Positions 9,204 to 44,212 are shown, counted from the stretch's first letter. The stretch is 64,000 nucleotides of DNA from Longimicrobiales bacterium (GCA_965204275.1 CBDBEC010000002.1:1981489-2045488), one strand, 5' to 3'. Notes: generated from the letters alone by a model not told the origin. A program made the numbers and translations.

Positions 9204-9247
9204 CGGACACTCACCTTCCGGGATTGGTGGAACATACCAGATGTTGG

Positions 9248-9269
9248 GGGGCATGAACTTTAATGCCCC
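9248..9269. promoter_or_regulatory. perfect 7-bp inverted repeat GGGGCAT-N8-ATGCCCC in the nrdJ leader
   Basis: Seen directly, 45-66 nt upstream of the preferred nrdJ start. Function unknown. Confidence 0.25.
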
Positions 9270-9387
9270 TATGGATTGTGGTCAATAGATCGGTGATCGT
9301 GGATCCGGCCGCGGGGGTTACCGAACCGGTCGGCGCCCGTTACGGGCGCGGGTGGCTGGTGCTCGCGGCAGCTCCATCCACGGACCG

Positions 9388-12300
9388 CTAGAAAGCGTTC
9401 CCGATCCGGATGTAGAAGACCGGGTCGCCTTCGATCACCGGGACTTCGGTGTCCACCAGCGGGAATCCGGCCCCGAAGCGCAACGTGAGTCCGCGCTGGT
9501 AGACCGGGACCACGATCACCGACACCTCCGCTCCGACGCTCATGAGCACGTCCTGCTTCGGGTTGTCGTAGCGGGGCTCGCTCTCGCCCAGATCGGGCCC
9601 CCAGGCGTTACCCGCGTCGACGAACACCGAGCCGTGGAACCTGTCGAAGAAGAGGGGCAGCGGCCCCAGACCGCGATCGATCAGCAGGACCGGGAAGCGG
9701 TACTCGGCGCTCGCGGTCCAGGCCACCTGCCCGTAGCGCACGTCCGTGGGGTAGCCCCGGATGGGGAGCAGGCGGGCCGAGCCGCCGAAGAGGCCGAACC
9801 CGGTCAACCCCTCCGGTGTGCCCTCGGCTCCTCCGACGCCGAAATGGTACTGGTCGGCGCCCGGCCCGTAGCCCTTGCCCGCCGAGAAGCGCAAGGCCAG
9901 CACATGGTTGGCGAACCCGCCGGCACGGAAGCCCTTGTATGCCGAGACCTCGCCGGTCAGCTCCTGGAAGCTCCGGTCCTCGCGGCGCTTGCCGCGCATC
10001 TCCGATTCCAGTCCCCCCTCCCGCTGCGTCCGCGCGCTCAGCCACCCGCTGACCCCGTCCTCGCGTGAGAGGGAAAAGGCCCGTCGCTGCGCGTTGGAGG
10101 CCGAGAGCGTGGCCCGCAGCTGGGTGAAGTCGGTCTCGTGGAAGCGTGACGGAATGAAATCCTGTGGGCCCTCCTCCCCCTGCAGATCCTGCAGAGTCAG
10201 ATACTCGCGCACAAGGCTGCCGCTGAGCGCAAAGCCGATCACGCTCCGGTAACGGGCTCTCTGGAACGAAGCCGAGAGGGTGGTCCACCTTTCCCGTTCC
10301 ATCAGGAAGTATTCCTGCAGGTCCCCCGAGACGCGGACGGAGTCCGTGCGGGACCGGGCGTCGTGGCTCTGGCCGCCGGAGAGCCCCAGCACCGGGTTGC
10401 CCAGTCCGTAGTACGAGTACCCGAAGTTGCCCGTGAAGCGCTTCCCGTCGAGAGAGACGCGCGCGTCGAGCGAGTAGTGGTGCCGCCCGACGATGTCCTC
10501 ACCCTCGGTCGCCAACCCGATGAACGGCTCGAAGACCGTGTAGCGCATTCTGTCCACCACGCTGGTCCCCTGCTCCGCCGCCGTGAACAGGGGTCTCCAA
10601 TGGTAGGGGCGGAGCGTGGGCAGGGCCCGGTAGTTCCTGTCGTCACCGGTAATGTCGGCGGCCTCCGCCGGGGGCGCGGCGGTCTCTGCAAATCGCTCGT
10701 GCAGCGGCTGGGGGGTGAACCACTCCTCCGGCGCGAAGGGGATCCGCTCGATGTGCCACCCGTCGTAGTGGTAGGAGGAGAAGTGGATCCAGCGGCCGCC
10801 GGGATCCACCGAGGGGTGCATGGCTCCGCCGAGCACGTTCGTGACCTGGCGGATTTCGGGGTCGCCGCCGGCGGGGACGGTCGCCGCGAAGAGATTCGGG
10901 ATCCCCGTGCGGTCGGAGGACCACAGGAGCATGGTGCCGTCGGGGGTCCAGTAGGGGTTGGTGTCGACGGCGCGGTCGTTCGTCACCCGGGTGGTCACCG
11001 TGCCGGTCGTGTCCAGGATGACGATGTCCATCATGCCGGGCGCCATCCAGCGCACCCCGGCGATGCGGCTCCCGTCGGGGGACCAGCGCGGATAGGCCCA
11101 GTGCGTGCCCGGGCCGGGCTCCGTGAGCGGCGTGACATCGCCCGTGCCCAGGTCGACCAGCACCAGCCGGTTCGTGCCGCCGCCCTCCTGCACGGCGATG
11201 GCCCGCTCCCCGTCCGGCGCGACGTCCGCGGAGGTGAGGCGGCGGCCCCGCGTCAGGCGGTCCACCCATCCGTCGAGCGTGACCCGGTAGAGGTCCATCG
11301 TGAGGCGGTAGGGATCGGTGAATTCGAACTGGGAGAACACCAGTGTCCCGTCCGGGCTCCAGGACAGGCTGCCGTCCACCCCGTTGAGCCGGGTGAGGCG
11401 GCGGGACCCGCTGCCGTCGGGTCCGGACACCCGGATCTGCGCGGCGTCGACTCCGTCCGCCCTGGCGAAGGCGAGCGTCTCCCCGTCCGGCGACATCATG
11501 GCCTGCCGGGCCAGGCGGCCCGCGCCCTCGACCTTTTCGCCGGCCGTGATGGGAGCCGACTCCGCGAGGCGGGCGGCCAGGGCGCGGTACTCTTCCGCGC
11601 TCGTACGGCGCCAGCTCTCCCAGCTTTCGCCGATCCCGCTCCCGAAGGCATCGTGCGCGGCCGCGCTCATTCGATACGGGACCACGAGCCCCGCCACGGA
11701 ACGGGCGAAGTCGCCCAGCGACTCCTCGCCGTGCAGCCCGGCCATGTGGTCCAGGTAGTGCGCCCCGTACGCGTAGGGACGGTAGCCGCCCGGCCACACC
11801 GGCGAGCTCCCCGAAACCTGGTCCACCTCGTCGAAGGACGCCTCCAGGGCGGCGGTGCGCAGCACCATGTCCTGCCAGGTTCCCTTGACCCGCCCCGCAC
11901 CGGTCAGTTCCGACTCGAAATAGGTGGCCAGCCCCTCGAGCACCCAGGAAGGCGACGAACTCGAGGGAAAGATCGGCCAGGTCCCCGGGGGCCGGCCGAA
12001 GATGGCGCGGATCACCTTGCCGGCCAGTCCGGTCATGTCGAGCTGGAAGGTGTGGACCAGCTCGTGGGTGATTACCAGTTCCAGCCAGTCGTCGAAGTAC
12101 GAGAGACTGCCGCCGTCCATGGGCGGGCGCACGAGGACGACGATCCGGTTGTAGGGGAACGGGGAGGCCAGACCGTTCGAGAAGTCCGCGTGATCGCTGA
12201 GAAGGAGCTGGACGCGGCCCGGCGGGGACTCGACGAAGCGCTCGTCGAGGAGGGCGTAGGCCCGTTCGGCGCTGGTGGCCGCGCGCGTGGCCAGCTGCCC

Positions 12301-22101: not shown

Positions 22102-22349
22102 AGCAGTCCGCGGATAAGGCCACCCGAGCACCGGGAGCGGCGAGGCGCCGGGCTGGCAAGGCGCGACGAGAGGGCGGTAGCAGCGCTACCGGCCCGAGGA
22201 GAAACGCAGAGCGAAGCCTTGATGAGGAAGAGAGTATGTCAGGCATGACAAATCGTAACGTCGCCTTTGCAGTGTGACCAGACGGGGCGAAGCGGCCAGC
22301 ACGGATGCATCGTCGCTCGAATGCCGGGGGGTCTTGTCCGCGGGCTGCT
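22102..22349 (-). mobile_element. 248-bp MITE-like element, copy A (intact), between ccdA and the thioredoxin-like gene
   Basis: Imperfect terminal inverted repeats AGCAGCCCGCGGACAAGACC / AGCAGTCCGCGGATAAGGCC (17/20). Homologous end to end with the split copy 32194-32397 + 42721-42765. Confidence 0.7.
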
Positions 22350-27787: not shown

Positions 27788-28291
27788 TCAGGTGGTCTCG
27801 ATGGGGCAGGTGAGGCCGCGGGAGGGAACCTCCGCGCCCGACTCCTGGCTGGCGCGGCTCAGGCCGAAGATGACCAGCTTGTGATGCGTGGGGCGGAAGC
27901 CGTGCCGGGCGGCGGTTTCCTCGACGATGCGGGTGAGTTCCTCGTTGCGGAACTCGATCACCTCGCCGCTCTCCGTGCATACCAGGTGGTGGTGCACCGG
28001 GTCCTTCGACAGGCGGTGCTCGTAGCGGCGGAAGCCCTCGCCGAAGTCGTGCTCCTCGACCAGCCCGCTCCGGACCAGCAGGTCGAGGGTCCGGTAGATC
28101 GTCGCCTTGCCCAGGCGCAGGTCCTTATCCCGCAGCACCGCCTCCAGATCCTCGACCGATTGGTGGCGCGGAGAGGAAAACACGGCCTCGGCCACGGCCA
28201 CCCGCTGCTGCGTGACGGGCAGCCCCTGTTCACGCAGGTAACGGCCGAAGATCGCCAGGTAGGGCTCGATGTCGGCGGGACCGAACTTCAT
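27788..28291 (-). CDS. Fur-family transcriptional regulator
   Basis: wHTH ...GKATIYRTLDLLVRSGLV..., HHHLVC and the overall 167-aa length fit Fur/Zur/PerR. Start ATG at 28291 chosen inside a longer ORF. Confidence 0.85.
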   Translation of the reverse strand: MKFGPADIEPYLAIFGRYLREQGLPVTQQRVAVAEAVFSSPRHQSVEDLEAVLRDKDLRLGKATIYRTLDLLVRSGLVEEHDFGEGFRRYEHRLSKDPVHHHLVCTESGEVIEFRNEELTRIVEETAARHGFRPTHHKLVIFGLSRASQESGAEVPSRGLTCPIETT

Positions 28292-28331
28292 CGCCGCTCG
28301 AATGCCGGGGGGATTTTGTTCACGCGCTGCT
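28289..28331 (-). repeat. solo MITE left-end homolog filling the spacer upstream of the Fur-family gene
   Basis: The minus strand reads AGCAGCGCGTGAACAAAATCCCCCCGGCATTCGAGCGGCGATG. MITE B reads AGCAGCCCGTGGAAAAACCCTCACGGCATTCGAGCGGCGATG and MITE A reads AGCAGCCCGCGGACAAGACCCCCCGGCATTCGAGCGACGATG. Confidence 0.6.
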
Positions 28332-28872: not shown

Positions 28873-29007
28873 ATCTAGAGAATCCGGAAGGGCCGGTCAC
28901 CTGTCGGCTCGGGGGCTGCCGGCGCCCGTGGGCAACCCGGGTAAGACCGGGAGGTGCCCCGCCAACGGGTGCCGACAGGGATCTCCGCCTTGGGGCGGAC
29001 ATGTGAC

Positions 29008-30249
29008 TCAGCGTATCGGCACCTCAATCACGGATTCACCGATAGGCACCAGCCGACGCCCCACCACATGGGGCAAGCCCAGGTCGTCTTCCAGAATCCC
29101 CCAGACATGCGTGTCGGTGACATCCTGCACCGACAACCACTTCGGCACGAGCACGCGTTTGGGGGCGCGAGCCACATCATCTCTCCGCAGCGCGTAGAAC
29201 ACTCTCAGAGTGTCCAATTCCTCGAAGGTACTGAGCCAGACCTCGCCGGAGGCAGTGAGTGCGAGGTTGATTGCTCCCGGGAGATGGGCGGGTCTGTAGA
29301 GGGTCTCCTCCCAGGCCTTTCTCAACTCGAGGCCGGACACCCCGGGAAACGCCGTGCTCTCCAACTGGAGTTTCTCGGCTTCCGTCCTTGTCCTTTCCGG
29401 TGTCAGACGAATGGGCTCGAACTGCAGGTGCCGATGCCAGATCGTGTCCCCATCCGGGTTCATTTCGGTCAGCTCCACGACTCCGGGGCCTTGCGTGCGG
29501 CGCGCCACCACCGCCACGCCGGGACGAAACCCGCTCAGATCGTAGTCTCCGAAGAGCTGGCCGAAGAACGCGGTTCTGGACTTGACCGGCACCGCGTGCC
29601 AACGGTTCCTGTTGTTCATCCAGAAAACGGGCTCGGGAGGGAGCCAGTGTCCGCTGCCGGAACGCCGGGCACGCATGACGGGATAGCGTTCGACAAGCGA
29701 GTCCGTGGCGCTGGCCAACCAGGTTTGTGGAACCACGAAATACGCCTCGGCGACCGCAGTGGCTTCGACGGACACGGACAAGCCCTGGTAGGACGCCGTC
29801 GCCCTTGGTCCCGGCTCGGTCCGCGTCGGTACGCCGTCCGTCGAGTAGTACGTAAACCGTGATCCGTATCCCTCCCGGACGTAAAACCCGCCATCATCCT
29901 GGAAATGCAGGCGGGTTGGAAGCATGAACTCCCCGGGGCCATCTCCCGGCCTGCCGACGACGAAGATCAGTGAACCGTCGGGCGTCCAGGCGGAGACCTG
30001 TCGGTCGATCCGGTCGATCACGAAGACGCGGTCCCGGTTGGGATCGGCTCTGAGGTACACATGGGAGAACAGAACGCCCGTTTCGCTACCGCTTGTAAAC
30101 CGGTATTCCGGCTCGGTGATCCATGTCCTTGGGTTGGGATTCACCGGAACCGGTGCGTCGGTGTCACATGCGAGGCATAGGAGCGCGACGGGGGCGGCGG
30201 CACGGAGCCGCCGCCCCGGGAGCACCGGCACCGGCAACTCGTTCAACAT
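29008..30249 (-). CDS. lipoprotein, beta-propeller-like (6-bladed propeller/NHL-like), hypothetical
   Basis: Lipobox ALLCLAC. Repeated motifs such as DRVFVIDRIDRQVSAWTPDGSLIFVVGRPGDGPGEF are typical of 6-bladed propeller lipoproteins. GC is lower than in the core genes. Confidence 0.65.
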   Translation of the reverse strand: MLNELPVPVLPGRRLRAAAPVALLCLACDTDAPVPVNPNPRTWITEPEYRFTSGSETGVLFSHVYLRADPNRDRVFVIDRIDRQVSAWTPDGSLIFVVGRPGDGPGEFMLPTRLHFQDDGGFYVREGYGSRFTYYSTDGVPTRTEPGPRATASYQGLSVSVEATAVAEAYFVVPQTWLASATDSLVERYPVMRARRSGSGHWLPPEPVFWMNNRNRWHAVPVKSRTAFFGQLFGDYDLSGFRPGVAVVARRTQGPGVVELTEMNPDGDTIWHRHLQFEPIRLTPERTRTEAEKLQLESTAFPGVSGLELRKAWEETLYRPAHLPGAINLALTASGEVWLSTFEELDTLRVFYALRRDDVARAPKRVLVPKWLSVQDVTDTHVWGILEDDLGLPHVVGRRLVPIGESVIEVPIR

Positions 30250-30275
30250 CCTATCTGGCTAGCTGCTTTGCGGCG

Positions 30276-31269
30276 TTAGCCGGACGATCCTCCGTTGAAG
30301 TTGACCCTCAATCTGACGAGCGATGTTACGCCCAATACATCGTGCCGCGAGGCGAGGATGTCACCGTTGGAGCACTGGAACCAAGGCTGGTACATAACCC
30401 CGTCCGTCCTAGCTTCGGCCTCCAGGTCGCCGGCGGGACTGAAGAGCTGCCAGATGGTGTGGCGCAACTCTGGATCCTCGTTTCGAGTGGGTGATCACGT
30501 TCAAGATCGCCCCGTCGGCCATCAGGAACACACCCCTAGACTGCGGATACCAGACCCTGAACGTCGTATAGGAAACCCCGTTCTCGTCGGTCGTCTTGAG
30601 GAGCACATCGTCTCCCGGTGACTCAAGGAGGCCACTGACAGAAACGATCGTACGACCGCTCGCGGCGACCGATCCAGAGGTGGGTAGTTGGTACCGTACG
30701 ATCTCGTGGGGCGCCGCCCGCGAGTAGAGGAGGGATCCGTCCGGCAGCACGTCGAGCGCCCCACCCGTCCCGACGAACCGGGCCATCATGTCTTCGGCCT
30801 CCATGGCTTCGCCCCAGCTACGAAGATACCTCCCCAGTTCGTCGAATTGATGGATCGCGTGGCTATTGCCGAACACCCCTCCGCTCAATACGAAGCCGCC
30901 ACCTGGCAGCAAGGCGAATCCTCCGTCGCGAGCGACAAGGAAATCGTCACGCTTGTCTCCGTTCGGGGCCACAGCCAGCACCATTCCTGGTCTGGAACTC
31001 GCGATCCACACTGTCCCCAGCGGGCTCTCGGCTGCTCCCGTAATCCTCGTGAGCTCTTCGAGCCGTGTGTTGCCGTCAGCAACCCATACCTCGGTCACGG
31101 TTAGGCGATCCGTGCCCTGCGCATCTAGCTGAAGGTTGAGGGCCAGTAAAGCGAATCCGGCGAGCCCCGAAGCTCGCCGGATTCGCTGCAGCGCCAGAGC
31201 CTGTCCGGTACTCGACCGCCGCAGCCAGCGTTCCAGCTCCTCCCGCTGTCCGTCGCCGACCTCCGGCAC
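30276..31269 (-). pseudogene. beta-propeller-like protein with a probable frameshift near 30470-30490
   Basis: The ORF 30409-31269 ends ...ILNVITHSKRGSRV.... An adjacent frame continues plausibly as ...RNEDPELRHTIWQLFSPAGDLEAEARTDGVMYQPWFQCSNGDIL... to 30276. Confidence 0.45.
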
Positions 31270-31398
31270 CGCCCGCGTGTTGCGTGTGGTGATTCGCCAT
31301 GATGTCGCATCCTCCGGTTGCGGGGAAAGGGGTCGGATAAGGCGTTATCCTTATACCTACGCCAATGGTTATCCCGACGCCAGAGGGAGGAGTCGCCG

Positions 31399-32194
31399 AT
31401 GAGTGCAAGACGGGCTCGCCAACGAAGTCTTTTCGACACCGGGTATCCAGATCACGAGATGGGGCGAGGGTTGGCCACGATGTCGGCGGTTCTGGACCAG
31501 CACCCTGAGTTGAGTTAGTGGACTGGATCGCGGAAGATGTGGACCGGGGAGAGCGGTCGTCGATGGGGCGGGCCGAACTGCCCTGCCAGGTGATTCTGCG
31601 CTGCGGGATCCTCAAGCAGCTGTGGCAGTCCGACTACCGAGAACTGGAGTTTGTGCTCGCAGACTCCGCCTCGGCCAGGCGGTTCACGCGGATCAACCCC
31701 CTGCGGCCCCCGAAGCGCTCGGCGTTGCAGCGCTGCATCAGGGCCGTGCGGGCGGAGACATGGGAGCGGATCAACCGGGCCCTGCTGGGGACTGCGCGGG
31801 GCGACGAGATCGAGACGGGAAGCAAGGTGCGCATCGACGGTGCCCGCGGAGGAGAAGGTGTTGAGCCTGTTCGAGCCCCACACCGACATCATTCGCAAGG
31901 GCGGCCGCCCGGGTTCAGTACGGACACAAGGTGAACCTCGGCAGCGGGCCGAGCGGCCTGGTGCTCGACGCCGTGGTCGAGGCGGGCAATCCGCCGGACA
32001 GCATTCGGTGCCTGCCGATGATCGAGCGGCACTCGGAGATCTACGGGTCGCCGCCGGAGCAGGTGGCGTGCGACGGGGGCTACGCCAGCAAGGCGAACCT
32101 GGCGGAGGCGAAGGCCTTGGGGGGTGCGCGACGTGGTCTTCCACAAGAAGAAGGGCCTCAGAGCCACTGACATGGCGTGGTCACCGAAGGTCTA
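31399..32194 (+). pseudogene. ISNCY/ISKra4-like (DUF772-type) transposase, 5' part, decayed
   Basis: GGGAGGAG SD, then MSARRARQRSLFDTGYPDHEMGRGLATMSAVLDQHPEL. A stop or frame change occurs at ~31515 before VDWIAEDV...ILKQLWQSDYRELEFVLADSASARRF...TWERIN...VRID. There is an internal deletion, and frame changes near 31905 and 32125. The part ends ...KKKGLRATDMAWSPKV at the TA at 32193-32194. Confidence 0.7.
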
Positions 32195-32397
32195 GCAGCC
32201 CGTGGAAAAACCCTCACGGCATTCGAGCGGCGATGCATCCGCGCTGGAACGCTTCGCTTGGACTGTCTCGAACGTAATGTTAACATTACATTTGGTCAAC
32301 TACAGTATACATTCCTTCTCTCCAAAGCTCCGCTCTGCGTTGCTCCTCGGGCGAACAGCTCCGCCATTCACCTTTCGTCGCGCCTTGCCAGCCCGGC
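32194..32397 (+). mobile_element. MITE copy B, left 204 bp (split by the integrase element)
   Basis: Aligns with positions 1-203 of copy A, from the TIR AGCAGCCCGTGG... to ...TCGTCGCGCCTTGCCAGCCCGGC. Confidence 0.7.
32386..32397 (+). repeat. attL core TGCCAGCCCGGC
   Basis: The 12-bp sequence repeats exactly at 42709-42720. It occurs once, uninterrupted, in MITE copy A. Confidence 0.7.
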
Positions 32398-32607
32398 AGA
32401 GCACCTGAAGCCCAAATCACGGTAGGAAGTCACGTAAAGTCAACCAGGACTGCACGATCTGCGTTTCCTACCGTTGGACTGGACCCTGCTGGACCGTGCC
32501 GCGAAAGCGGGAAAACCGGACCTGAATGGCGAGACTCCAGAACATGGCCCGGTACGTTGCCTTATCGTTCTTAGCACCGACTCCCCGCTGGGGGAGGAGT
32601 ACCTGTG

Positions 32608-32727
32608 ATGACCAAGACCCAGATGTGTGACGGCTGCGGCCGCCGGATGCTTGATGGGCTTGCCCGATCCGCGAGGTCCGGCAGCGTGAACAGGCGGAAC
32701 TTGGTAGAAAACCGAGTCCAAGCCTAG
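32608..32727 (+). CDS. small CxxC protein (39 aa), candidate only
   Basis: GGGAGGAG lies 7-8 nt upstream of the ATG. Translation MTKTQMCDGCGRRMLDGLARSARSGSVNRRNLVENRVQA*. Below the ORF-track length cutoff. Confidence 0.3.
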   Translation: MTKTQMCDGCGRRMLDGLARSARSGSVNRRNLVENRVQA

Positions 32728-32905
32728 GGCCAGAGCGGCGCCGGGAGGCTATCCAGGCGTGGAATGAACCACCTGGGGGCTTTGAGTAGTCGGGTGCAGA
32801 GGCACGCATCCCGGTTTGATCCAGCTACCCTCATCCAATCTCGGCCTCCGGTGCCTAATGTCCGTGCATTTGACGAGAGCAGAAGGAAGTCTCCAGCTTC
32901 GTGCC

Positions 32906-33460
32906 ATGGAAACAGACTTGACACGGCGGAAGCCGATCAGGCGCTGGTTGAAGCGGGCAATCGACCTGCCCGGAACGCTGAGCCACCTCAGGGTGTGGGC
33001 CGCGTGTTTGTCCAAGGCTTGGGCATGGTTGCTGGTCGTCATGCCCGGTCCAGTGATCTTGCTCCGTAGCTGGCTGGTGGACCGGATTCTTGACGTCGTG
33101 GTCGTCGGATTGAGTTTCGTCGTGTCGGCGGCCGGGGTACTTCTGCTTCGATCACAGGCGAAGCGTCCGAACCCAGAAGTGGAACGTTTGAAGGCCTTGA
33201 CCCCTCGGATCCGAGAAGCACGGGACACGTTCCATGAGATGGGACCCAGTGGCGGCCAACGCTTCATTTCGCTGACTATCGAACTCGCCGCGCACTTGGA
33301 AGCGCTAGGCGTTCACTGTCCGGCGGAGCTGGGAACGGGCAACCGTGTCACGCAATGGGTTCGTTTCTTGGATAGGCTGCTACCGCTGGCCGAACTCGGA
33401 CGACTTGAAGAAGCTCGCGATCTGTGCGAGCCAGAGGCCAGTACTGCGCCCCGAGGCTAA
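32906..33460 (+). CDS. hypothetical membrane protein (two predicted TM helices plus a helical cytoplasmic tail)
   Basis: METDLTRRKPIRRWLKR..., then the hydrophobic stretches AWAWLLVVMPGPVILL and VVVVGLSFVVSAAGVLLL. Start chosen at an internal ATG. Confidence 0.5.
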   Translation: METDLTRRKPIRRWLKRAIDLPGTLSHLRVWAACLSKAWAWLLVVMPGPVILLRSWLVDRILDVVVVGLSFVVSAAGVLLLRSQAKRPNPEVERLKALTPRIREARDTFHEMGPSGGQRFISLTIELAAHLEALGVHCPAELGTGNRVTQWVRFLDRLLPLAELGRLEEARDLCEPEASTAPRG

Positions 33461-33736
33461 TCTGCGGCGTACCGTCAGGTTTCCCGTGAGGGATTGTGGA
33501 GGACGGGCGTGGCGACGCGGTGGAGGGACTGAGGCCGCACTGGCCCGTCCACGTCCGGTTGAAGGAATAGGTGGAGGTCGCCTACGCGTGTCGATCTGCT
33601 GGACCGGTGACGGGAGGTCATGCAAGCGTGGTGGGCTACCTCCGACAGTTGAGGGTGGCTGGCCCACCGCGTAGACCGCATCCAAGTGGCGGTCTCACCT
33701 GGTCCGACTCTCCCCCGTTGGCTAGCTTCCCGGCCA

Positions 33737-34483
33737 ATGATCACCCTCGGCGTCGACCTTGCATCTCAGCCGGAACGGACGGCCACCTGCCGGATCCGTT
33801 GGCGCGCACCGCCTCTGCGGCGACCGACTGTCGACGCACTCTCGAAGGGCGCCACGGATTCACGTCTCCTTGAGCTGTTCCGAGGATCAGATAAGATCGG
33901 AATCGATGCCCCGTTCGGATGGCCTGTGAGCTTCGTCCAAGCCATTCGCGGGTACTCGACCGCCACGGTTTGGCCAACCTGTGACGTTTCCGATCTGCGT
34001 TTCCGCCGAACGGACCGAATGGTCAGGGAGAGACTGGGTCGATGGCCTCTCAGTGTCTCGGCGGACCGGATCGCCATGACCGCGATGCGAGCTGCCCGTC
34101 TGCTGGCGAAAGTGGCTGAAGAGGGCGAAGTCATTGATCGGAGCGGAGGTGGCCGGTTCGTCGAAACCTACCCTGCCGTGGCCCTCTCGATATGGGGACT
34201 GCCCTCGAAGTGCTACAAAGGCGAAACGGAGGAGGCGACCGCAGTTCGGTTGGAGATCGTGGATGGCCTTGCCGAGAAGCTCGGCTCCGGGCTCATCCTC
34301 TCCGAAGAGGTTCGGCGCAAGTGTCTGGAGTCGGATGACATGCTCGATGCGCTCGTGGCCGCTCTGGTGGCTCGCGGGGCGGCACGTCGCCGCTGCCAAC
34401 CGGTTGCGCCTGACGACCGCCGTCTGGCCAACGAGGAAGGGTGGATCGCGTGCCCGCACGCGAATAGTCTTGAGAGGCTCTGA
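33737..34483 (+). CDS. DUF429-family protein (predicted RNase H-like nuclease)
   Basis: MITLGVDLAS..., IGIDAPFGWP, ...ETYPAVAL..., ...SDDMLDALVAALVA. This fits my recollection of DUF429 conserved blocks. Confidence 0.7.
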   Translation: MITLGVDLASQPERTATCRIRWRAPPLRRPTVDALSKGATDSRLLELFRGSDKIGIDAPFGWPVSFVQAIRGYSTATVWPTCDVSDLRFRRTDRMVRERLGRWPLSVSADRIAMTAMRAARLLAKVAEEGEVIDRSGGGRFVETYPAVALSIWGLPSKCYKGETEEATAVRLEIVDGLAEKLGSGLILSEEVRRKCLESDDMLDALVAALVARGAARRRCQPVAPDDRRLANEEGWIACPHANSLERL

Positions 34484-34779
34484 GGACGAGCAAAGCAGCC
34501 AAGGGACAGGTCCGCTTCGAGGTTCTTGACTCGCTCCTCGCACCGGATCCGGCCCTGTTCCCGCTCGTAGCCCTCGGCCCAGCGCGACAGCCGGTGCTTG
34601 CTGTTGCCCAGTTTCGCCGCTATCGCGGTCTCGCGACCGACCCGGTTGGTGGCCATTTCGACTCCGTTTGCCGAGGAGGGAAGAAAGGAAGAAGGGCTGC
34701 GACCCCTCGGCGCTCCACGAAAGGCTGCCGAAGCTGTAGCGCGACAATCAGGATGAGAAGCCAGCGACAATCAGGATGA

Positions 34780-37190
<2,411 letters not shown>

Positions 37191-37430
37191 AGCGCTCCAC
37201 AACGCGGGTCCCTCCCCCGAACGGGACCGAAGAGGCGGCAGAGATGGCCCTGAGAGGCCCGTGGAGCCGCCGGAAGGGTCACCGACGAACCCCTCGGAGC
37301 CTCTGACAACCCGAATCCCGGGGCCGGACGGCCCGAATCCGGAGCATCGGGGCGAACAGGGGGCGGGAAATGCGCCCGTCGAGGGCGCTTTGACGCACTC
37401 GGCCTACCGTTACCCCTCGGAAGAAGGCCA

Positions 37431-37479
37431 GCCGACGCTCCGGCCCGGCTCGCTACGCTCCCCGCGCCGGAGCGTCGGC
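37431..37479. repeat. 13-bp perfect inverted repeat GCCGACGCTCCGG-N23-CCGGAGCGTCGGC inside the IS21 3' region
   Basis: Read directly. It lies in the unusually long (~470 bp) stretch between the istB stop and the right terminal repeats. Confidence 0.6.
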
Positions 37480-37869
37480 CGAGCCACCCACCAACCCCCC
37501 GCAGCGCACCCCTCCCCACGTCCCCACCACCCCACCACCACCCCCCCCTCCCTTGCCCCAGCCCCCCAAACCCCTCATCATCTCCACACTCGAAGCGTCG
37601 CGGCCTCTTATTCTCACCTTGATTGTCGCAACGCTCTCATCTTGATTGTCGCCGCGCAGCCGAAGCCCAGTCGTCAACTCGGCGCGACGGCCCCTCCCGG
37701 CTGCGAGTGTCCGACCATCGTGGTCGACTTGGCCGGAGTCCCGGAGCCGCGAGGTGCGGCACCCCCATTGGCGCCCGGCTTCTCCCTGTTGTACCGTCTC
37801 AGGCTGAACAGCTTTCGAGGGCCTGCGAATGGCCCGGCTCCAATGTCCAGCCGAAGAAAGGGGATCACG

Positions 37870-38304
37870 ATGTCCCATTTGTCCTTCACGCTCGTAGGCC
37901 TGTTTCTTCTGAGCTTGGTTCTGGAAGCTCACCAGGAACCGACCGAGGTCAAGCAGGAACGGCAGCATCCATCCATCCAAGAAGCCTACGCGCAGGTGGT
38001 CTACTGCGAGGTCTTGGAAAACGAAGCGATCATGGCCGCTGACTCAAGCTGGACAGAAATCCGCTTCACAGTACCTCTCGCGACCGAGGAGGGGGTTGAG
38101 AAGATGCGCAGCCACAACGAGCTTCTGGTCACGCTGGAAGATGCGCGAATGGCAAACCGAGCCGCCGTAGCGCGGCTTACCGGGCTGTTGGAAAAGGAAG
38201 GCCTGATAGAATTTGGTTTGACTGAGGAACTTGATCCAGAGAACTGCGAATCGCGCCGGGGGGGCCTAAGACCCGCCCGCCGTCTTCGGCCAACGGCACG
38301 GTGA
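37870..38304 (+). CDS. small secreted hypothetical protein (144 aa)
   Basis: AAAGGGG SD-like. Signal-like MSHLSFTLVGLFLLSLVLEA. Lower GC. No family recognised. Confidence 0.5.
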   Translation: MSHLSFTLVGLFLLSLVLEAHQEPTEVKQERQHPSIQEAYAQVVYCEVLENEAIMAADSSWTEIRFTVPLATEEGVEKMRSHNELLVTLEDARMANRAAVARLTGLLEKEGLIEFGLTEELDPENCESRRGGLRPARRLRPTAR

Positions 38305-38566
38305 GGGCCTCGGAGGGCCCGTTTCCGGGGGGTGGACGCACATTTCGGGGTACATACGGGCGGTAGAATCGCCTCAGAGCGACGATCGCCGGTCCCCGAG
38401 GGGTATGGGTAGGCCGGAATTCGATCGCGCAACAGGAGCGCCGGGGATACGTCGTCGTCGTGCCAGAGGCTGGCGACCGGGAGGCCGATGGGCTTGCCCG
38501 CGACGGCCCTGTGGGACGCTGTTCCGGGCCGTGTCCTGAAAGGCCGTTTCGGCGGCTCCGCCGGGG

Positions 38567-38598
38567 GCTGGCTTGTCCCTTAAGGTAGACAAGCCAGC
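38567..38598. repeat. 11-bp perfect palindrome arms GCTGGCTTGTC-N10-GACAAGCCAGC with an AT-rich loop (CCTTAAGGTA)
   Basis: Read directly. Sits in the ORF-poor stretch 38305-39240. Confidence 0.6.
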
Positions 38599-39255
38599 TT
38601 ACTCCTTGGGGCCACACTCCGTGCGTCCCCTGCGGAGGCTGGCGGGGGGCCGCGCCCCCTCTGACCCCGCGGTTTTCCGGCCCGTCGCCGGGGCCGCGGC
38701 CGAGCGCTTCCCCTCCGTGGCCGACGGTCCGGCCGACGCGATCCTGGCCGGACCCGCCAGCCGCGAACTCGGTCACGACCGGCGAGGCCGTCAGGATCCG
38801 CCCGTGGGCGAGTCCCTGGCCGACCGGGTGGCCGGAGCCGTATCAAGCCCGGAAACCCACTCTCACGGCGATTCTGGGCGTTTTGGGGGTGGTCTGGCGG
38901 AATCCGAGGCCACAGAATCGCCTGTAACGCACGAACTCGACCCCCGGAGGGGTAGGAGTACCCCCGGTTTCGGACCTCCGGCAAAGAACTCGACATCCTC
39001 CCGGTGGATGATCGAGCCACGGAAACGGGTATGGGCGCGTCCTCGATGGCCTAACGGCCGGCGGTGGCCGGATGGCCCGCGCGCGCAATCTGACCGGCGA
39101 TCCTGCCCCGGCGCTCCGCGCCCTTTTCGGGCACGACGCCGAACCGGGACATCTCCGTGCCGGTTGACATGGCGCGCGGATGTCGTTCGGGGGTCCGGGG
39201 GCACCCCCCGGCCAGAGGTTTTCGTGAAGCGAAAACACATCTGGCTCCTCCGAAA

Positions 39256-39271
39256 CCCCGCGAACGCGGGG
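39256..39271 (-). terminator. duplicate copy of the same hairpin in repeat unit 1
   Basis: Identical sequence, 342 bp away. Confidence 0.3.
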
Positions 39272-39597
39272 ACCAATAACGCGGACCGCGTCAAGCCAGC
39301 GACGGCGGCTGCCCCGCAAGCCATGATCGCGCCCTCGGCGCGCGTCCCACTCGGCATTCGGCGCGGTGGAGGACGCTGGCTAGCAGCTTTCCGACCGAAC
39401 TACAAGAAGCGAACGCAGAAGTCGCAAGCGCGACCGAAACGGACTTGCTCCTCCACCTTCTTGCAATGTCCGCAACCGTGCCTGCCAAAGAACCACAGCG
39501 CTGGATCAAGGGCCGCGCATGTGCCCTTGATTCCGGCTGGTCCTACGATGTCTGCCTCCGATACGGCATTCCGCCAAGTCTGCTGGCTCCTCCGAAA

Positions 39598-39613
39598 CCC
39601 CGCGAACGCGGGG
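39598..39613 (-). terminator. candidate intrinsic terminator hairpin CCCCGCG-TT-CGCGGGG followed by TTTCGG (minus strand)
   Basis: 129 nt downstream of the stop at 39742. The T-tract is short, so this is weak. Confidence 0.35.
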
Positions 39614-39741
39614 ACCAATAACGCGGACCGCGTCAAGCCAGCGACGGCGGCTGCCCCGCAAGCCATGATCGCGCCCTCGGCGCGCGTCCCACTCGGCATT
39701 CGGCGCGGTGGAGGACGCTGGCTAGCAGCTTTCCGACCGAA

Positions 39742-41196
39742 CTACAAGAAGCGAACGCAGAAGTCGCAAGCGCGACCGAAACGGACTTGCTCCTCCACCT
39801 TCTTGCAATGTCCGCAACCGTGCCTGCCAAAGAACCACAGCGCTGGATCAAGGGCCGCGCATGTGCCCTTGATTCCGGCTGGTCCTACGATGTCTGCCTC
39901 CGATACGGCATTCCGCCAAGTCTGCTGGATGACACGTTTGGCCTTCGGAAGCGGCAACCCGCGCGTCGCCGTCACTCCCAGACTCTCGGTCGCCCTACGC
40001 ACCTGAACATCCACTGCGACCGGGATGGTTTCGATGCGATCGATCACGGCTTGACCCGGATTCGCCATCATTCGGACCCACATCGGTCCGACCTTCGGGC
40101 CGCGTAGCATCGGAAAGCGATCGCGCCCGTCCCTGTCGCGGGACTTGAGGTCCCTGAGCAGTTCCTGGGCCTCACCGGCGCCAGCGTCAATCACCCGACT
40201 CACGGGAGACTTGAGGCGAGCGGACAGGCTCTTGCCGATCTGGTGCCACGCTTTCGAGTCGGGACCGTGCCTTCGGCTAACGCTTGCGGCCTTCAACAGC
40301 CTGCGAAGCTCGTCGACCTCAAGCCCGGCTACATGCTGCGGATCAAAGCTCTCCGGGTGGTCTTCGTAGAGGCGTCCCCCGGCGTTCCAGAGTTGGGTGG
40401 CGTCCCGCGCCCGGTCCATCGCGGCAACGAACGTGAGAAAAAGGCGCGCGGCGCGGTCGGTATCCCCAAGGAAGCGGATGTGCTTGGCGCTGCGAACGCT
40501 ATGCAGGAGAGCCGAATCGTTCCCGGTCTCGAACTCCGCCCCGGCGGCCCGCAGCCTATGCACGATCTCGACCTCGGGCATGTCGAGCCATGGATGGCTT
40601 GGAGCCATGCCGCGCGAAGCCAGGTCGAGGCCGTCTCCGTAGAAGTCGTCCGCGATCAGCTTCGCGATGCGGGCGGCATGGGGGCGAGCGGGTGAGTTGG
40701 GTTGATCCGCCTTTCCGTTGGCGTCCAACCTCTCCCGATACCAAGCCTGCTGGCGCGCGATCCCGGCGATGCCAGCGAGTGGCCGATGAACTGCGGCCCC
40801 TGCATCGCACAGTCCTTCTTCCAGCCCGTGGTCGATGTAGGTCGCGCCAGCGTGGATCTCGATCCGCTTGTCCCGCATCGGCGGCACCCGACGCTTCAAG
40901 TCAGCGAGTACGCGGGCCGACCAAGCTCGCCGGGCCTTGGCCCGGAGATCCGTCAACGCGAGTTCGTAGGCATCAATGCGCCGGTCAGGATCCAGCAACC
41001 CATGTAGCGCGCTGAGGATGTACCACGGAACGCCCAGGCACTCGGCATACGCACGCCGGTAGCGCCACAGGGGTGAGCTGTAGAGATCCTTGGCGGCGCT
41101 CCTCGCCGCACGCTTGGTCTTCACGCACCCGACCAGCACGATGTCGGGTGGCTGCCACGAGGCCATGGGCGGCTCCGGTTCTTCAGACGAGTTCAT
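39742..41196 (-). CDS. fusion protein: DUF6884-like N-terminal domain plus HhH-GPD/endonuclease III-like C-terminal domain with a Cys cluster
   Basis: N-terminus DIVLVGCVKTKRAARSAAKDLYSSPLWRYRRAYAE...PWYILSALHGLLDPDRRIDAYELAL fits recalled DUF6884. C-terminus LRGPKVGPMWVRMMA...IPVAVDVQVRRATESLGVT...ALDPALWFFGRHGCGHC...CDFC resembles HhH-GPD glycosylases with an FeS-type loop. Start at 41196 or 41166. Confidence 0.6.
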   Translation of the reverse strand: MNSSEEPEPPMASWQPPDIVLVGCVKTKRAARSAAKDLYSSPLWRYRRAYAECLGVPWYILSALHGLLDPDRRIDAYELALTDLRAKARRAWSARVLADLKRRVPPMRDKRIEIHAGATYIDHGLEEGLCDAGAAVHRPLAGIAGIARQQAWYRERLDANGKADQPNSPARPHAARIAKLIADDFYGDGLDLASRGMAPSHPWLDMPEVEIVHRLRAAGAEFETGNDSALLHSVRSAKHIRFLGDTDRAARLFLTFVAAMDRARDATQLWNAGGRLYEDHPESFDPQHVAGLEVDELRRLLKAASVSRRHGPDSKAWHQIGKSLSARLKSPVSRVIDAGAGEAQELLRDLKSRDRDGRDRFPMLRGPKVGPMWVRMMANPGQAVIDRIETIPVAVDVQVRRATESLGVTATRGLPLPKAKRVIQQTWRNAVSEADIVGPAGIKGTCAALDPALWFFGRHGCGHCKKVEEQVRFGRACDFCVRFL

Positions 41197-41456
41197 GCCG
41201 AACCAAGTAGGCTCAATGACGTGGCCCTTGCAAGGCGGTTCGCGGGCGGTGCGTTCAAATGGGGAGCAGTTCCGCCACTCTCCCGTCGCCTCGCGGTTGC
41301 CACATGCTTGCCGAACGGGGCCGCTTGGACGACGTGTTCCGGCCCGGTTCCGGGGAGGATGCCACGCGCTTCCAGACGCCTCCGGCTGGCGGAGACCGCT
41401 TCTCTCGGCGATACTTCGTTCGCGCAGATCGTGCGGTCCATCACGAGAGGAATCGA

Positions 41457-42617
41457 ATGATGGCACGCACGAAACGAAGTCGGCGCAGCTACGGCGCCGG
41501 CGAGTGGGGCCGGAACCGGGTGAGGATCTTTCCCGATCCCAAGACCGGCCTCTTTCAGATTGAGTGGCGCGAGAACGGTCGAAGGCTGAGCCGGTCGCTG
41601 AGACACCGCGACTGGGCGCGCGCGAAGAGGCAGGCGGATCAGTTCGCCGCAGGGTTCATCGACGCGCCGAACGGCAAGGCCGAAGGCAAGCCCGAGCCGC
41701 TCACGCTGGAACGGCTCTTTGACATCTACGGCAAGGAGGTGACGCCCGCGAAGGGCGCTCATACCCGGCAGCACGACCGGACCTCGATGCGGATGTTCCT
41801 CCGCTTCTTCGGACGGAACCGCGACCCGGCCACCCTCTCCCAAAGGGACTGGGACCGATTCATCCGGGAGCGCCGGGCGGGCAGGATCGGTCCGAGCGGG
41901 AGGCCCGTCGCGGACCGGACCGTCGAATACGATCTGAAGTTCCTGATCGCGGTTCTGAACTGGGCGGCGAAGTCACGCGACGAGCGGGGGCGGTTGTTGC
42001 TCGACCGAAATCCGCTCAGAGGACTCAGGACGCCGAGCGAGAAGAACCCGACCCGCGTGGTGCTCGCCGAGGAGGAATACCGAGCGCTGCTGAAGGTGTC
42101 GGGCCGGGTGGACTGGCGGTTCCACGTCGCGCTCGTGCTCGCGCACGAGACGGGCCACCGGATCGGAGCCATCCGCCAGCTACGATGGGCTGACATCGAC
42201 TTCGAGGGAGGAACCATCGTCTGGCGCGCGGAGCACGACAAGTCCGGCTACGAACACATCACGCCGGTCACCGCCGAGGCCCTCGACGTTCTGGAAGAGG
42301 CGCGGGGGAGGAATCCCGGATGCGGGGAAGCTCCAGCGCTGCCAGCGCCCCGGAATCCGTCGGCCTGCATGGGAGCCGCGTTGGCGCAGGGATGGTGGGA
42401 CAGGGCCGAGAAGCTGGCGGGGCTGGAGCCGAAGCCCGGCAGGGGCTGGCACTCGCTACGCCGCAAGTTCGCCTCCGACCTGATGGACCAGCCGTTGAAG
42501 GTGCTCTGCCAACTCGGCGGCTGGAAGACGGCCAAGACGGTGCTCCGGTGCTATCAGAGGGCCGACGAAGGACAGCTTCGGAAGGCTCTGGAAGACCGCC
42601 GCCGGGCTCGCGGCTGA
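41457..42617 (+). CDS. tyrosine-type site-specific recombinase/integrase
   Basis: GAGAGG SD. Catalytic-region motifs LAHETGHRIGAIRQLRWADID, GWHSLRRKFASDL, LGGWKTAKTVLRCYQ (R...HxxR...Y). Confidence 0.9.
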   Translation: MMARTKRSRRSYGAGEWGRNRVRIFPDPKTGLFQIEWRENGRRLSRSLRHRDWARAKRQADQFAAGFIDAPNGKAEGKPEPLTLERLFDIYGKEVTPAKGAHTRQHDRTSMRMFLRFFGRNRDPATLSQRDWDRFIRERRAGRIGPSGRPVADRTVEYDLKFLIAVLNWAAKSRDERGRLLLDRNPLRGLRTPSEKNPTRVVLAEEEYRALLKVSGRVDWRFHVALVLAHETGHRIGAIRQLRWADIDFEGGTIVWRAEHDKSGYEHITPVTAEALDVLEEARGRNPGCGEAPALPAPRNPSACMGAALAQGWWDRAEKLAGLEPKPGRGWHSLRRKFASDLMDQPLKVLCQLGGWKTAKTVLRCYQRADEGQLRKALEDRRRARG

Positions 42618-42708
42618 AATCCAGAACGGCGGGAGTCAATCAGCGGGAATCCGGGCTGTCGAACATGCAAACACCTTCACCGCAACAAGATGCGAAACTT
42701 CAACCACA

Positions 42709-42720
42709 TGCCAGCCCGGC
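42709..42720 (+). repeat. attR core TGCCAGCCCGGC
   Basis: Exact repeat of 32386-32397. Confidence 0.7.
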
Positions 42721-42765
42721 GCCTCGCCGCTCTCGGTGCTCGCGGGGCTTTATCCACGGACTCCT
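42721..42765 (+). mobile_element. MITE copy B, right 45 bp
   Basis: GCCTCGCCGCTCTCGGTGCTCGCGGGGCTTTATCCACGGACTCCT aligns with the right end of copy A, including the TIR. Confidence 0.7.
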
Positions 42766-42950
42766 ACGGGCGGCTCAGGAACTTCCGGGCCGGCATGGAG
42801 GCCGTGGTCTCGTACCTCAAGCGATGCTTCGGGCTCCGCCGGTGCAACTGGCGGGTACTCGAACACTTCCGGGCCTACGTCTGGTCGGCGGTGGTCACGC
42901 ACAATCTCTGGGTGACCCAGCCCCTACAATCATGCTCACAACATTGTTGA
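42765..42950 (+). pseudogene. ISNCY/ISKra4-like transposase, 3' part
   Basis: (TA)C GGG... reads YGRLRNFRAGMEAVVSYLKRCFGLRRCNWRVLEHFRAYVWSAVVTHNLWV. Joined to ...DMAWSPKV at 32192 through a single TA, this restores the expected contiguous motif. Confidence 0.7.
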
Positions 42951-43138
42951 ACTCTCTGGGCCTCACTCATTGGCCGCTCGCAATCATCCTGATCAGCTCC
43001 GCCTCCAGTAGACCACACCGCGACGAGCCCGGGTTGGCCGATGCGGCCCAGCCCGTATGCATCGCCGGTCGGGGCGCCCCAGCCGCGCCCGTCCCCCGGT
43101 GGTGACTACTGCCCCGAGGAGCAACGCGTAGCGTAGCG

Positions 43139-44212
43139 TCAGTCCTCGCAGGTCGGCCCCACCGCGTGCCCGATCCCAGCCAGCCAGTCCTGAAACTCCC
43201 GGTCTGCCGGGGCACAGAGCCCGTCGTTGACCTCCCAGGTGAAGGCGTAGAGCGCGCTTAGCCGGGTGAATTCGGCAGGGATCGGACCGGTGAGGCGGTT
43301 TCCCGCGAGAAGCAGCTCTTCGAGTCCCGCGGCGTTGGCGAGTTCGGGAGGCAGGGGACCTTCCAGCCGGTTGAGGTCGAGGCGCACCCATTCGAGCGTC
43401 GGGATGTCGCCGAGGACGGCCGGGATCCGGCCGCTCAACCGGTTTTCCTAGGCAAAAAGGTACCTGAGCTTCGGCAGATTGCCGAGTTCCGCCGGAATCG
43501 GGCCCGTCAGCCGGTTCCGGTTTAGGTCGAGCACCTCGAGGTTCGGCATGCCGCCCAGTTGGGCGGGGATTTCTCCTTCGACTCCGCTGTGCCAGAGGCT
43601 CAGGAAATGGAGTCTCGTGAGATTCGCCAACTCGGGCGGGATGGAACCGCTGAACTCGTTCCAATCCAGCAGGAGCTGCTCGAGGCTCTCCAGATTGCCG
43701 AGTTCCCCGGGGATCTCGCCCGTGAGCCGGTTGTGGTTGAGTTGGAGTTCCTCCAGCTTGCGCAGCTCGCCCAGCTCGGCGGGAATCGCACCGCTGAGCT
43801 CATTGCGGCCCAGCATCAGATAGCGCAGCGACCCGAGGTCCCCGAGTTCGGGAGGGACCGGGCCGGTGAGCCGGTTCCCCTCCAGGTAGAGCCCCTCAAG
43901 CTCTCCGAGGTCGCCGAGTTCGGCCGGAAGGGGCCCCGCCAGTCCGTTGTCGTCCAGCCGGAGCACCCTCACCTTCCCTTCGCCATTGACGCCTACGCCG
44001 TGCCACTCGCCGACCGGCTCCTCGGAGAGCCACTTGTCCCTGCGGGCCCATCCAGAACCTCCCGTGGCATTGTACAGGGCGACCAGCGCCTCGCGCTCGA
44101 CATCCGCGGGGGGCTTCGGCTTGACCGGATCGTCCCCGCAGGCCACGGCGACAGTGATTGCGAGTGCCGGCCCGATCCGTCGGGCCGGCGTGGATTCGAA
44201 TGTCGGTTGCAT
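43139..44212 (-). pseudogene. plant-type leucine-rich-repeat lipoprotein interrupted by an in-frame TAG (43448-43450)
   Basis: Signal and lipobox ...ITVAVACGD. N-cap REALVALYNATGGSGW. About 10 repeats of 24 residues, LxxLxxLxLxxNxLtGxIPxELG. Reads ...LRYLFA*ENRLSGRIP... in one frame. C-cap LCAPADREFQDWL. Confidence 0.6.

Follow-up and report, generated by a model that had tools for sequence, protein, structure and literature searches.

An integrase-bearing element lodged in a dispersed miniature inverted-repeat transposable element of a Longimicrobiales bacterium

The stretch of DNA considered here, 64,000 nucleotides from a Longimicrobiales bacterium (GCA_965204275.1 CBDBEC010000002.1:1981489-2045488; the whole stretch is called the window, and positions are counted from its first letter), contains at 32386-42720 an integrase-bearing element that sits inside a copy of a short dispersed repeat, a miniature inverted-repeat transposable element (MITE). 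The 12-mer TGCCAGCCCGGC has three exact occurrences in the window, at 32386-32397 and 42709-42720 on the plus strand and at 22147-22158 on the minus strand, whereas 0.04 matches would be expected by chance, and none of 100 shuffles reached three. The two direct copies, referred to as the attL and the attR core, respectively, enclose an insert of 10,323 bp (from 32386 to 42709). The dyad symmetry of the core is real, if partial (TGCC-AGCCC-GGCA at attL), and its putative 7-bp overlap, CAGCCCG, would lie at 32389-32395. To the left of attL we find the left part of MITE copy B (32195-32385, plus strand), comprising a terminal inverted repeat, a promoter-like region and a degenerate hairpin, and to the right of attR its right part (42721-42763, plus strand), which ends with the opposite terminal inverted repeat; a CTA target duplication flanks the whole (32192-32194 on the left, 42764-42766 on the right). 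When 32194-32397 and 42721-42765 are joined at the 12-mer, they align over the whole length (253 bp, 75% identity) with the reverse strand of 22102-22349, which is MITE copy A, an uninterrupted long-form copy on the minus strand with one core at 22147-22158, and the 35 bp surrounding the 12-mer are identical between copy A and the rebuilt copy B. Copy A also carries a promoter-like TTGTCA-N17-CATACT directed toward the core. Thus, the bounding repeat, its partial symmetry, the collinearity of the flanks with an uninterrupted MITE and the presence of an occupied next to an empty paralogous site, all of which had been pointed out in a first-pass annotation of this DNA, are borne out, and the observation of an integrase element bounded by a 12-bp repeat within a MITE is confirmed.

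MITE copy B in turn splits a frameshifted pseudogene of an insertion sequence (IS) of the DDE type (DDE_Tnp_1), whose upstream fragments occupy 31509-32194 on the plus strand and whose C-terminal piece follows at 42767-42945; its reading ..MAWSPKV|YGRLRNFRAGMEAVV.. (..SPKV|YGRLRNFRAG..) picks up again beyond the MITE and fits the final part of the DDE_Tnp_1 profile. The element itself harbors an IS21-family insertion, and the nesting order at the locus is IS pseudogene, MITE, integrase element, IS21. A solitary MITE terminus fragment of 45 bp lies at 28287-28331 on the minus strand. No tRNA gene, tmRNA gene or Rfam family was found in the window.

An intact open reading frame (ORF) at 41457-42617 on the plus strand (int) encodes an integrase of 386 amino acids that scores 57.5 bits against PF00589 (E 2e-15, cut-off 27.1) and so belongs to the tyrosine recombinase superfamily. 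Its stop at 42617 is 91 nt before the attR core, which agrees with the earlier placing of the end of a tyrosine recombinase gene close to attR. Residues R235, K262, H332, R335, W356 and Y366 are invariant in an alignment of 35 family sequences, and the R, HxxR and Y align with those of the archaeal Xer protein 4a8e. A profile search against solved structures gave very low similarity, with the best match to an archaeal Xer (E 2.5e-8), and returned the same relatives as the fold search, in which full-length lambda Int (1z1b) came out on top of the Foldseek matches with an E of 7e-8, but with a TM score of just 0.23-0.26, and in which XerA and the Tn1549 Int were also found. Both element ends carry conserved arms: the attL-proximal (P') arm at 32398-32565, with AATCACGGCAGGAA, GGACTGCACGATCTGC and two GCGGGA(N)TC-type motifs, and the int-proximal (P) arm at 42618-42708, with two direct GCGGGA(G/A)TC motifs (both plus strand). 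This motif, two per arm, is kept across subfamilies; the window arms score strongly against the family profiles (169 and 96 bits), and a 16-mer of the attL arm reappears inverted some 20 nt upstream of the int start codon. Judging from this arrangement, the integrase presumably binds the arm motifs. With repeated arm motifs on both sides, a YGCC-N5-GGCR core dyad and a minimum common repeat of 7 bp, the site shows the attachment architecture of lambda-type integrases.

The integrase has many relatives. A scan of one genome per species yielded more than 560 copies, 79 loci of which were fetched with 10-kb flanks, and homologues with 80-90% identity number in the thousands in the protein database. 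The loci come nearly all from assemblies of Longimicrobiales or other Gemmatimonadota, many of them sponge-associated. Several chromosomes are multicopy, up to 8 of the 79 fetched loci coming from a single one. Just three parts of the window element are kept across loci, namely about 170 bp inside attL, int with its upstream region, and the 91 nt between the int stop and attR; the remaining DNA is variable cargo. Every relative has a short dyad core, YGCC-N5-GGCR, about 92 nt past the int stop. Within one assembly, L045 and L046 have int genes that are 100% identical but lie between different flanks, and the int genes of L071/L073 (99.9%) and L001/L026 (99.2%) are nearly so in different species-representative genomes; near-identical copies at different sites and in different species point to recent movement. 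Loci L004, L035 and L061 are labelled Gammaproteobacteria and L057 and L078 Bryobacterales/Acidobacteria; these bins are from sponge or similar metagenomes and their contigs are mostly short, which suggests binning errors rather than cross-phylum spread.

The target repeat behaves as a MITE: it is short, non-coding, bounded by terminal inverted repeats and target duplications, and dispersed in many copies. It measures about 249 bp, or about 175 bp in a form without the central 68 nt, and neither form contains an ORF. Its termini, inverted CAGYCCGYGGAYAA, run on into inverted arms that are imperfect and about 57 bp long. Target duplications of 3-4 bp, C(T/C)AG-like, flank independent copies, although some copies are degenerate; by copy they read CTAG/CTAG (L008), CTAGG/CTAGG (L123), CCAG/CCAG (L089) and, in window copy B, where the ORF split is precise, CTA/CTA. 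Two copies and a fragment fall within the 64 kb of the window, at least 12 copies or parts were counted in three 21-kb loci of chromosome OX639991, and the repeat is present on dozens of contigs from sponge-type metagenomes; in plasmid and phage databases the Longimicrobiales MITE had no match. As for an autonomous IS with the MITE termini, no terminus pair 0.6-4 kb apart was found in about 2 Mb of loci, except for two adjacent MITEs in L008. The short form (here about 171-175 bp) also occurs in head-to-tail tandem arrays (L002 5650-6120 and 11250-11650, L008 11890-12240, L040 2880-3110), and the L002 element is located inside such an array.

Forty-two integrase copies share the core type of the window, defined by the overlap CAGCCCG or CGGCCCG (30 copies, including that of the window) or by the reverse-complement core TGCCGGGCTGGCA (12 copies). 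Among the former, the right end of the MITE comes next in 20 (19 loci and the window), a variant MITE-like end in 3 and other sequence in 7, one of these being a sibling element. Among the latter, the left part of the MITE read backwards comes next in 5, a truncated form of it in 2 and unrelated DNA in 5. The five clear cases are the group-2 loci L018, L036, L037, L040 and L053, and with them two integrase subfamilies enter one and the same MITE site in opposite orientations. Had other MITE copies lacked the 12-mer, the case made in the first-pass annotation would have fallen; however, the integrase loci and the window together contain ten uninterrupted copies, of which seven carry the 12-mer exactly and three have a variant core, and about 30 more came from a metagenome scan that was independent of the integrase, its query being the MITE left flank plus the core. 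The 46 contigs returned by that scan comprise about 30 MITEs without interruption, 5 occupied copies, recognisable by the attL arm of the element after the core, 2 probable chance matches and several other repeats, giving a ratio of empty to occupied copies of about 6:1. Among the loci there was no empty orthologue of the window's own site.

The bases around the cores are informative as to how the repeats were made. Thirty complete elements with both ends found measure 3.5-11.2 kb and are bounded by direct repeats of 7-14 bp, the shortest being 7 bp, and in each of the 30 the two ends agree over a segment of at least 7 bp. In some of them the outer bases of the two cores differ: L005 and L009 have TGC-CAGCCCG-AC (TGCCAGCCCGAC) at attL and TGT-CAGCCCG-GC (TGTCAGCCCGGC) at attR, L007 has TGC-CGGCCCG-AC (TGCCGGCCCGAC) and TGT-CGGCCCG-GC (TGTCGGCCCGGC), and L004, at a non-MITE site, has CGG-CAGCCCG-AC (CGGCAGCCCGAC) and TGT-CAGCCCG-TC (TGTCAGCCCGTC). 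From these hybrid cores we infer an attP of the form TGT-overlap-AC, a MITE attB of the form TGC-CAGCCCG-GC and an exchange within 7 bp. It could perceivably be argued that the 12-bp repeat is instead a target-site duplication made by a transposase, be it the IS21 enzymes or another DDE enzyme, with the integrase as mere cargo, given that direct repeats around an insert are typical of transposition and that an IS21 lies inside the element. This IS21-family insertion (34735-37658, plus strand; istA 34813-36378, istB 36375-37190), however, has multi-repeat terminal inverted repeats of its own and its own 8-bp target duplication, GCCGAAGC, at 34727-34734 and 37659-37666 within the element, whereas the element itself has no terminal inverted repeats. 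Moreover, many genomes show this core again at independent insertions, the integrase and both arms are the sole parts kept in all copies, unrelated fixed-length duplications are seen in none of the 30 complete elements, and the repeat varies between 7 and 14 bp as set by attP/attB similarity, which a staggered cut would not bring about. Because the outer-base differences fit an attP x attB exchange and the repeat length varies, we regard a duplication made by a transposase, against which the first-pass annotation itself had cautioned, as practically excluded.

A different objection starts from the MITE. MITEs often arise by internal deletion between short repeats, and the one described here could in principle be such a derivative of a larger unit with the same inverted termini, so that the 12-bp repeats would mark the deletion point and no integration would have occurred. 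Taken on its own, the finding of one core in copy A and two in copy B would fit such an origin, which is a common one. On the other hand, the sister subfamily lies reversed in the same MITE site in the five group-2 loci, elements of the same type occupy non-MITE sites with only the core in common (L004, L007, L012), the outer bases of attL and attR differ in the attP x attB pattern, the element carries no DDE transposase able to use the MITE terminal inverted repeats, and empty copies outnumber occupied ones as stated above. The two orientations and the hybrid cores contradict an origin of the MITE by deletion, to which we assign next to no probability.

Three relatives (L022, L040 and L064) carry, besides int, a MobC/NikA-like gene and a MobA/VirD2 relaxase gene divergent from it; the window copy retains just a MobA/VirD2-type relaxase remnant of 49 amino acids (34516-34662, minus strand; 75-78% identical to the L022 and L064 relaxases) and a candidate oriT region. 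Because relaxase and MobC-like genes accompany int in some relatives, the family would seem best described as integrative mobilizable elements (IMEs), even though many copies, that of the window included, are without a relaxase. Taken together, the 10.3-kb interval very probably represents an integrated IME copy that was inserted into the MITE core by its own tyrosine integrase. In the model that we propose, the window integrase (41457-42617) would have inserted 32386-42720 by conservative site-specific recombination between an attP of the form TG(C/T)-CAGCCCG-(G/A)C, flanked by arms with repeated GCGGGA(N)TC motifs, and an attB represented by the identical core TGCCAGCCCGGC inside the MITE. 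Strand exchange would take place in the 7-bp overlap CAGCCCG and leave one core copy at each end, and the MITE would serve to scatter many perfect core copies around the genome. A sister subfamily with the overlap inverted in its attP would use the same MITE site in reverse orientation, and further subfamilies with different overlaps would use different targets. Transfer between cells would then proceed by conjugative mobilization, with the MobC-like protein and the relaxase that intact relatives encode divergently from int; the window copy, without mob genes, could move between cells only with help in trans. Upon excision, the attP junction is predicted to read CAACCACA-TGCCAGCCCGGC-AGAGCACC (in extended form ...GATGCGAAACTTCAACCACA-TGCCAGCCCGGC-AGAGCACCTGAAGCCC...) and the repaired MITE copy B ...CACCTTTCGTCGCGCCT-TGCCAGCCCGGC-GCCTCGCCGCTCTCGG....

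Several observations weigh against this interpretation or narrow it. First, whereas 25 of the 42 core-type copies adjoin a clear MITE and 5 a variant or truncated MITE-like sequence, the other 12, one of which adjoins a sibling element, lie next to other sequence. The use of the MITE is therefore a statistical preference and not a requirement. Homologues at unrelated sites without the repeat would have been a refutation in the eyes of the first-pass annotation; most copies of this core type, however, sit in the MITE site, the core is present wherever both ends of a non-MITE insertion were recovered, and none of the three refuting conditions named there is borne out. The rebuilt non-MITE sites (L004, L007) have only the 12-mer core or the overlap in common with the MITE, and the right flank of L012 is unlike the MITE as well. 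Since such targets share the core alone, the integrase appears to require a core of about 12-13 bp, and the MITE would act as a multiplier of perfect sites without being itself recognised. One might object that the integrase recognises an extended MITE sequence, that is the invariant 22-35 bp or its structure, and that the MITE is thus the true attB. Such recognition would account for the identity of 35 bp around the core between copies that are otherwise 75% identical, for a 22-mer (CGTCGCGCCTTGCCAGCCCGGC) that is invariant even in unrelated repeat families, and for the location of 25 to 30 of the 42 insertions in MITE or MITE-like sequence; but L004, L007 and the right flank of L012 do not resemble the MITE beyond the 12-mer or the overlap, the group-2 elements approach this core from its opposite side, and repeats from soil and from Burkholderiales keep the 22-mer although none of these integrases was seen there, which suggests another reason for its conservation. 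We consider recognition of an extended site unlikely. Of the earlier proposal that the MITE is an attachment site providing many landing pads, the recurrent use of the same site thus stands, and what has to be given up is the MITE as such, because the enzyme would need just the core of about 12 bp.

Second, the structural model of the integrase is of low confidence (pLDDT 65, pTM 0.42). It comprises an N-terminal sheet and helix, a four-helix domain and the catalytic domain, and its N-terminus, modelled somewhat better (pLDDT about 75-78), has three strands (residues 22-26, 33-39 and 42-47) and a helix (53-64), which suggests an N-terminal arm-binding domain. Third, a cognate excisionase is typical of lambda-type integrases, though not strictly defining, and no conserved small gene that could fill this role was detected among the elements; a single AlpA-like gene was present in the cargo of the 27 elements surveyed. 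The 39-amino-acid CxxC ORF near attL, which had been put forward as a possible excisionase, does exist at 32608-32727; it has no homologue in 125 loci or in any related element, and is ruled out for this role because it is not conserved in related elements. Fourth, an exact-pattern scan for the excised circle or the attP junction (CAACCACATGYCRGCCCGRCAGAGC) found neither in metagenome contigs, viral contigs or the loci; the host organisms are rare in that collection, so this says little about activity. The sole locus match to the attP pattern is a head-to-head element pair.

Finally, the window copy is decayed: its relaxase is lost, an IS21 has inserted and the region upstream of int is rearranged, so that it may no longer be mobile. 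It is a decayed IME that is not self-sufficient. Whether it is altogether a fossil, integrated once and by now incapable of excision and transfer, has to be weighed in this light. The reduction of the relaxase to 49 amino acids, the IS21 insertion, a 342-bp duplication and a 2-kb segment that separates the conserved upstream region from int all point that way, as does the failure of the scans to find an attP junction. Conversely, the int ORF is intact with all its catalytic residues, both cores are perfect, the arms retain the profile scores given above, and relaxase-bearing siblings exist in the lineage that could act in trans. We see a fossil as a serious possibility, though one that we would not favor; the copy might still be active at present. 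With the above corrections, the interpretation of an integrase element that uses a MITE as attachment site is supported by the sequences compared.

In its chemistry and site architecture the system is one of lambda-type integration; in its gene content it is an IME. Like the lambda-type (heterobivalent) integrases, it has a PF00589 domain with R-K-H-R-W-Y, three predicted domains, lambda Int as the best fold match, arms on both sides and int beside attP; the identity between exchange sites of lambda is a 7-bp overlap, the same length as here. Unlike lambda-type elements, it is multicopy in a genome, has its target in a dispersed repeat rather than a single tRNA or other gene, and shows no conserved excisionase. 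NBU1, SGI1 and the streptococcal IMEs are integrative mobilizable elements, and known IMEs usually reside at one or few specific loci. The present family resembles them in being small (3.5-11 kb), in combining int with variable cargo and in including members with a relaxase and a MobC/NikA-like gene divergent from int, and differs from them in reaching at least 8 copies per chromosome, often as head-to-head or nested pairs. With Tn916, Tn1549 and CTnDOT, which tolerate non-homologous coupling sequences and have a loose target preference, it shares a tyrosine recombinase, many sites per genome and, presumably, a circular intermediate (the Tn1549 Int being among the fold matches). In contrast to Tn916 and CTnDOT, its core is highly specific and the overlap is identical at both ends in 30 of 30 complete elements. 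Membership of the Tn916/CTnDOT type was rejected on the grounds of the segment of at least 7 bp that is identical at both ends in all 30; so was that of the Xer/dif-dependent integrative mobile elements (IMEX), as the family has its own integrase, a multicopy GC-rich site and element-specific arms.

The first-pass annotation knew of no description of the targeting of a multicopy mobile repeat as a general strategy. Precedents do exist: the IS elements IS1397, ISKpn1 and ISPpu9/10 target dispersed repetitive extragenic palindromic (REP) sequences (PMC1525189, PMC12288879), and the Neisseria prophage Nf1 targets dRS3 repeats, of which there are 200-700 per genome (PMC7058167). What these have in common with the elements described here is a dispersed intergenic repeat that offers many neutral landing pads. 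Unlike the REP-targeting IS elements and Nf1, however, which presumably use DDE or IS110-type transposases, our family has a tyrosine integrase with a multi-gene cargo, and its repeat is a transposon-derived MITE with terminal inverted repeats and target duplications. The searchable literature, which is incomplete, contained no report of an integrase or IME targeting a MITE and none with the core sequence. Dispersed-repeat landing pads are thus not new as a strategy, and it is the MITE target and the copy number that differ here.

Integrative elements are usually thought of as single-site per genome, residing in a tRNA or other conserved gene. The family of tyrosine-integrase islands described here, with more than 560 copies in species-representative genomes of an uncultured, often sponge-associated lineage, behaves more like a transposon, because its short core rides on a mobile repeat. 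It illustrates from nature how a site-specific recombinase can acquire a large set of neutral landing pads and how its specificity shifts when the overlap changes. It also explains the clustered and nested islands in these genomes and bears on the spread of their cargo, among which are transporters, an FGE-sulfatase protein and giant LRR/Ig-like proteins. Moreover, the integrase is compact and its site is defined to 12-13 bp, so that it could be tried out as a tool.

Sibling elements are found on a single common core, either head-to-head, with two inverted attL arms, or tail-to-tail (L001 at about 658, L009 at about 1324, L016 at about 4610, L021 at about 3032 and L003 at about 11253). These pairs show that attL and attR can still be hit by the subfamily that inserts in the opposite orientation. 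The overlap differs in further subfamilies. One with the overlap CCGTCAG (L071 at about 7742, L066 at about 18071, L020 at about 14385, L065 at about 1419) has a different multicopy target, which looks like a mobilisation-gene region; L042 11541-12375, from the same assembly, is a paralogue of the L071 target without an insertion. Seven loci show an attL-type arm, inverted, right next to the 5' module of a sibling at cores of the CANNGGGTANGC form (L015 at about 1270, L036 at about 11348, L037 at about 5225, L055 at about 8765, L072 at about 7857, L077 at about 7870 and L079 at about 7874), and these junctions probably reflect nested insertion by yet another subfamily, one whose targets are the elements themselves.

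The MITE holds a module of its own around the att core, about 100 nt long, that is made up of GCGTTGCTCCTC, a hairpin of variable sequence with a covarying stem, and the invariant 22-mer introduced above. The module is shared by repeat families of unrelated bacteria whose terminal inverted repeats are entirely different; these come from soil and termite metagenomes and from Caballeronia and Polaromonas plasmids (L085/L113, L095, L101, L084, L108, L114, L080, and L126 3915-4165 on the Caballeronia plasmid NZ_CP084278.1); in the plasmid and phage databases, the foreign MITE with this module matched only two plasmids, and the Caballeronia copy carries no annotation. It might represent a protein-binding site or an RNA, or else a conserved transposase leader that the MITEs have kept. 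It is tempting to speculate that it is a unit in its own right, either a functional RNA or a protein-binding one, and that the IME family hops between repeats by rewriting its 7-bp overlap to colonise multicopy DNAs, although we consider this conjecture rather doubtful. If it were true, the IME targets would comprise this MITE in both directions, the repeated mobilisation-gene region and the conserved module of sibling elements, and the elements would spread with the repeats that they target.

The region upstream of int is conserved in its own right. In the window, its non-coding DNA of about 700 nt lies at 38551-39264 on the plus strand; in canonical relatives it is directly upstream of int. 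It has single-nucleotide indels, several hairpins and no consistent reading frame, and has counterparts in L001, L004, L005, L009, L010, L026, L029 and L030 at about 9100-9830. In most other elements its 5' module (about 110 nt) and its 3' module (about 95 nt; 39152-39264 in the window) are separate, with variable DNA between them. The last 95 nt or so, containing hairpins and ATCTGGCTCCTCC, correspond to the region from which int and mob diverge, which in intact relatives is where the mob operon starts; it is plausible that they form a candidate oriT or a regulatory site, and the whole may be a decayed mob/oriT region. A structured RNA was considered and set aside: RNAalifold found 26 pairs with double changes, but an unfavourable overall covariation term. 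The idea of a guide RNA, for which some segment of this region would have to vary along with the core from one subfamily to the next, was dropped, the GGCTGGC stretch being the same in subfamilies with different cores. Rfam had no match for the MITE, its module, the arms or this upstream region.

As to the remaining contents of the element, a perfect tandem duplication of 342 bp (2.0 copies, 100% identity) at 39241-39928 on the plus strand starts in the conserved module upstream of int and could either have arisen very recently or stem from the assembly. The segment that displaces the conserved region from int carries a gene for a DUF6884-domain protein (39742-41166, minus strand), shared with L027 only (92% amino acid identity), and a gene for a DUF429 protein (33686-34483, plus strand) was not found in other sampled elements. 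A cargo survey of 102 proteins from 27 complete elements revealed nested IS110 and DDE transposases, giant LRR/Big_2 proteins, the FGE-sulfatase protein, a short-chain dehydrogenase, a TonB receptor, ABC/AAA_21 proteins and the AlpA-like protein mentioned above, as well as a MobA/VirD2 relaxase with NikA/MobC-like genes in two elements.

Next to the IS pseudogene, at 43039-43139, the window has a degenerate and rearranged MITE-like scrap that includes GAGGAGCAACGC. The G+C content over the IS pseudogene and the left part of the island (29000-34000) is 61-66%, against about 69-74% in the surrounding DNA, and this lower value is consistent with a foreign origin.

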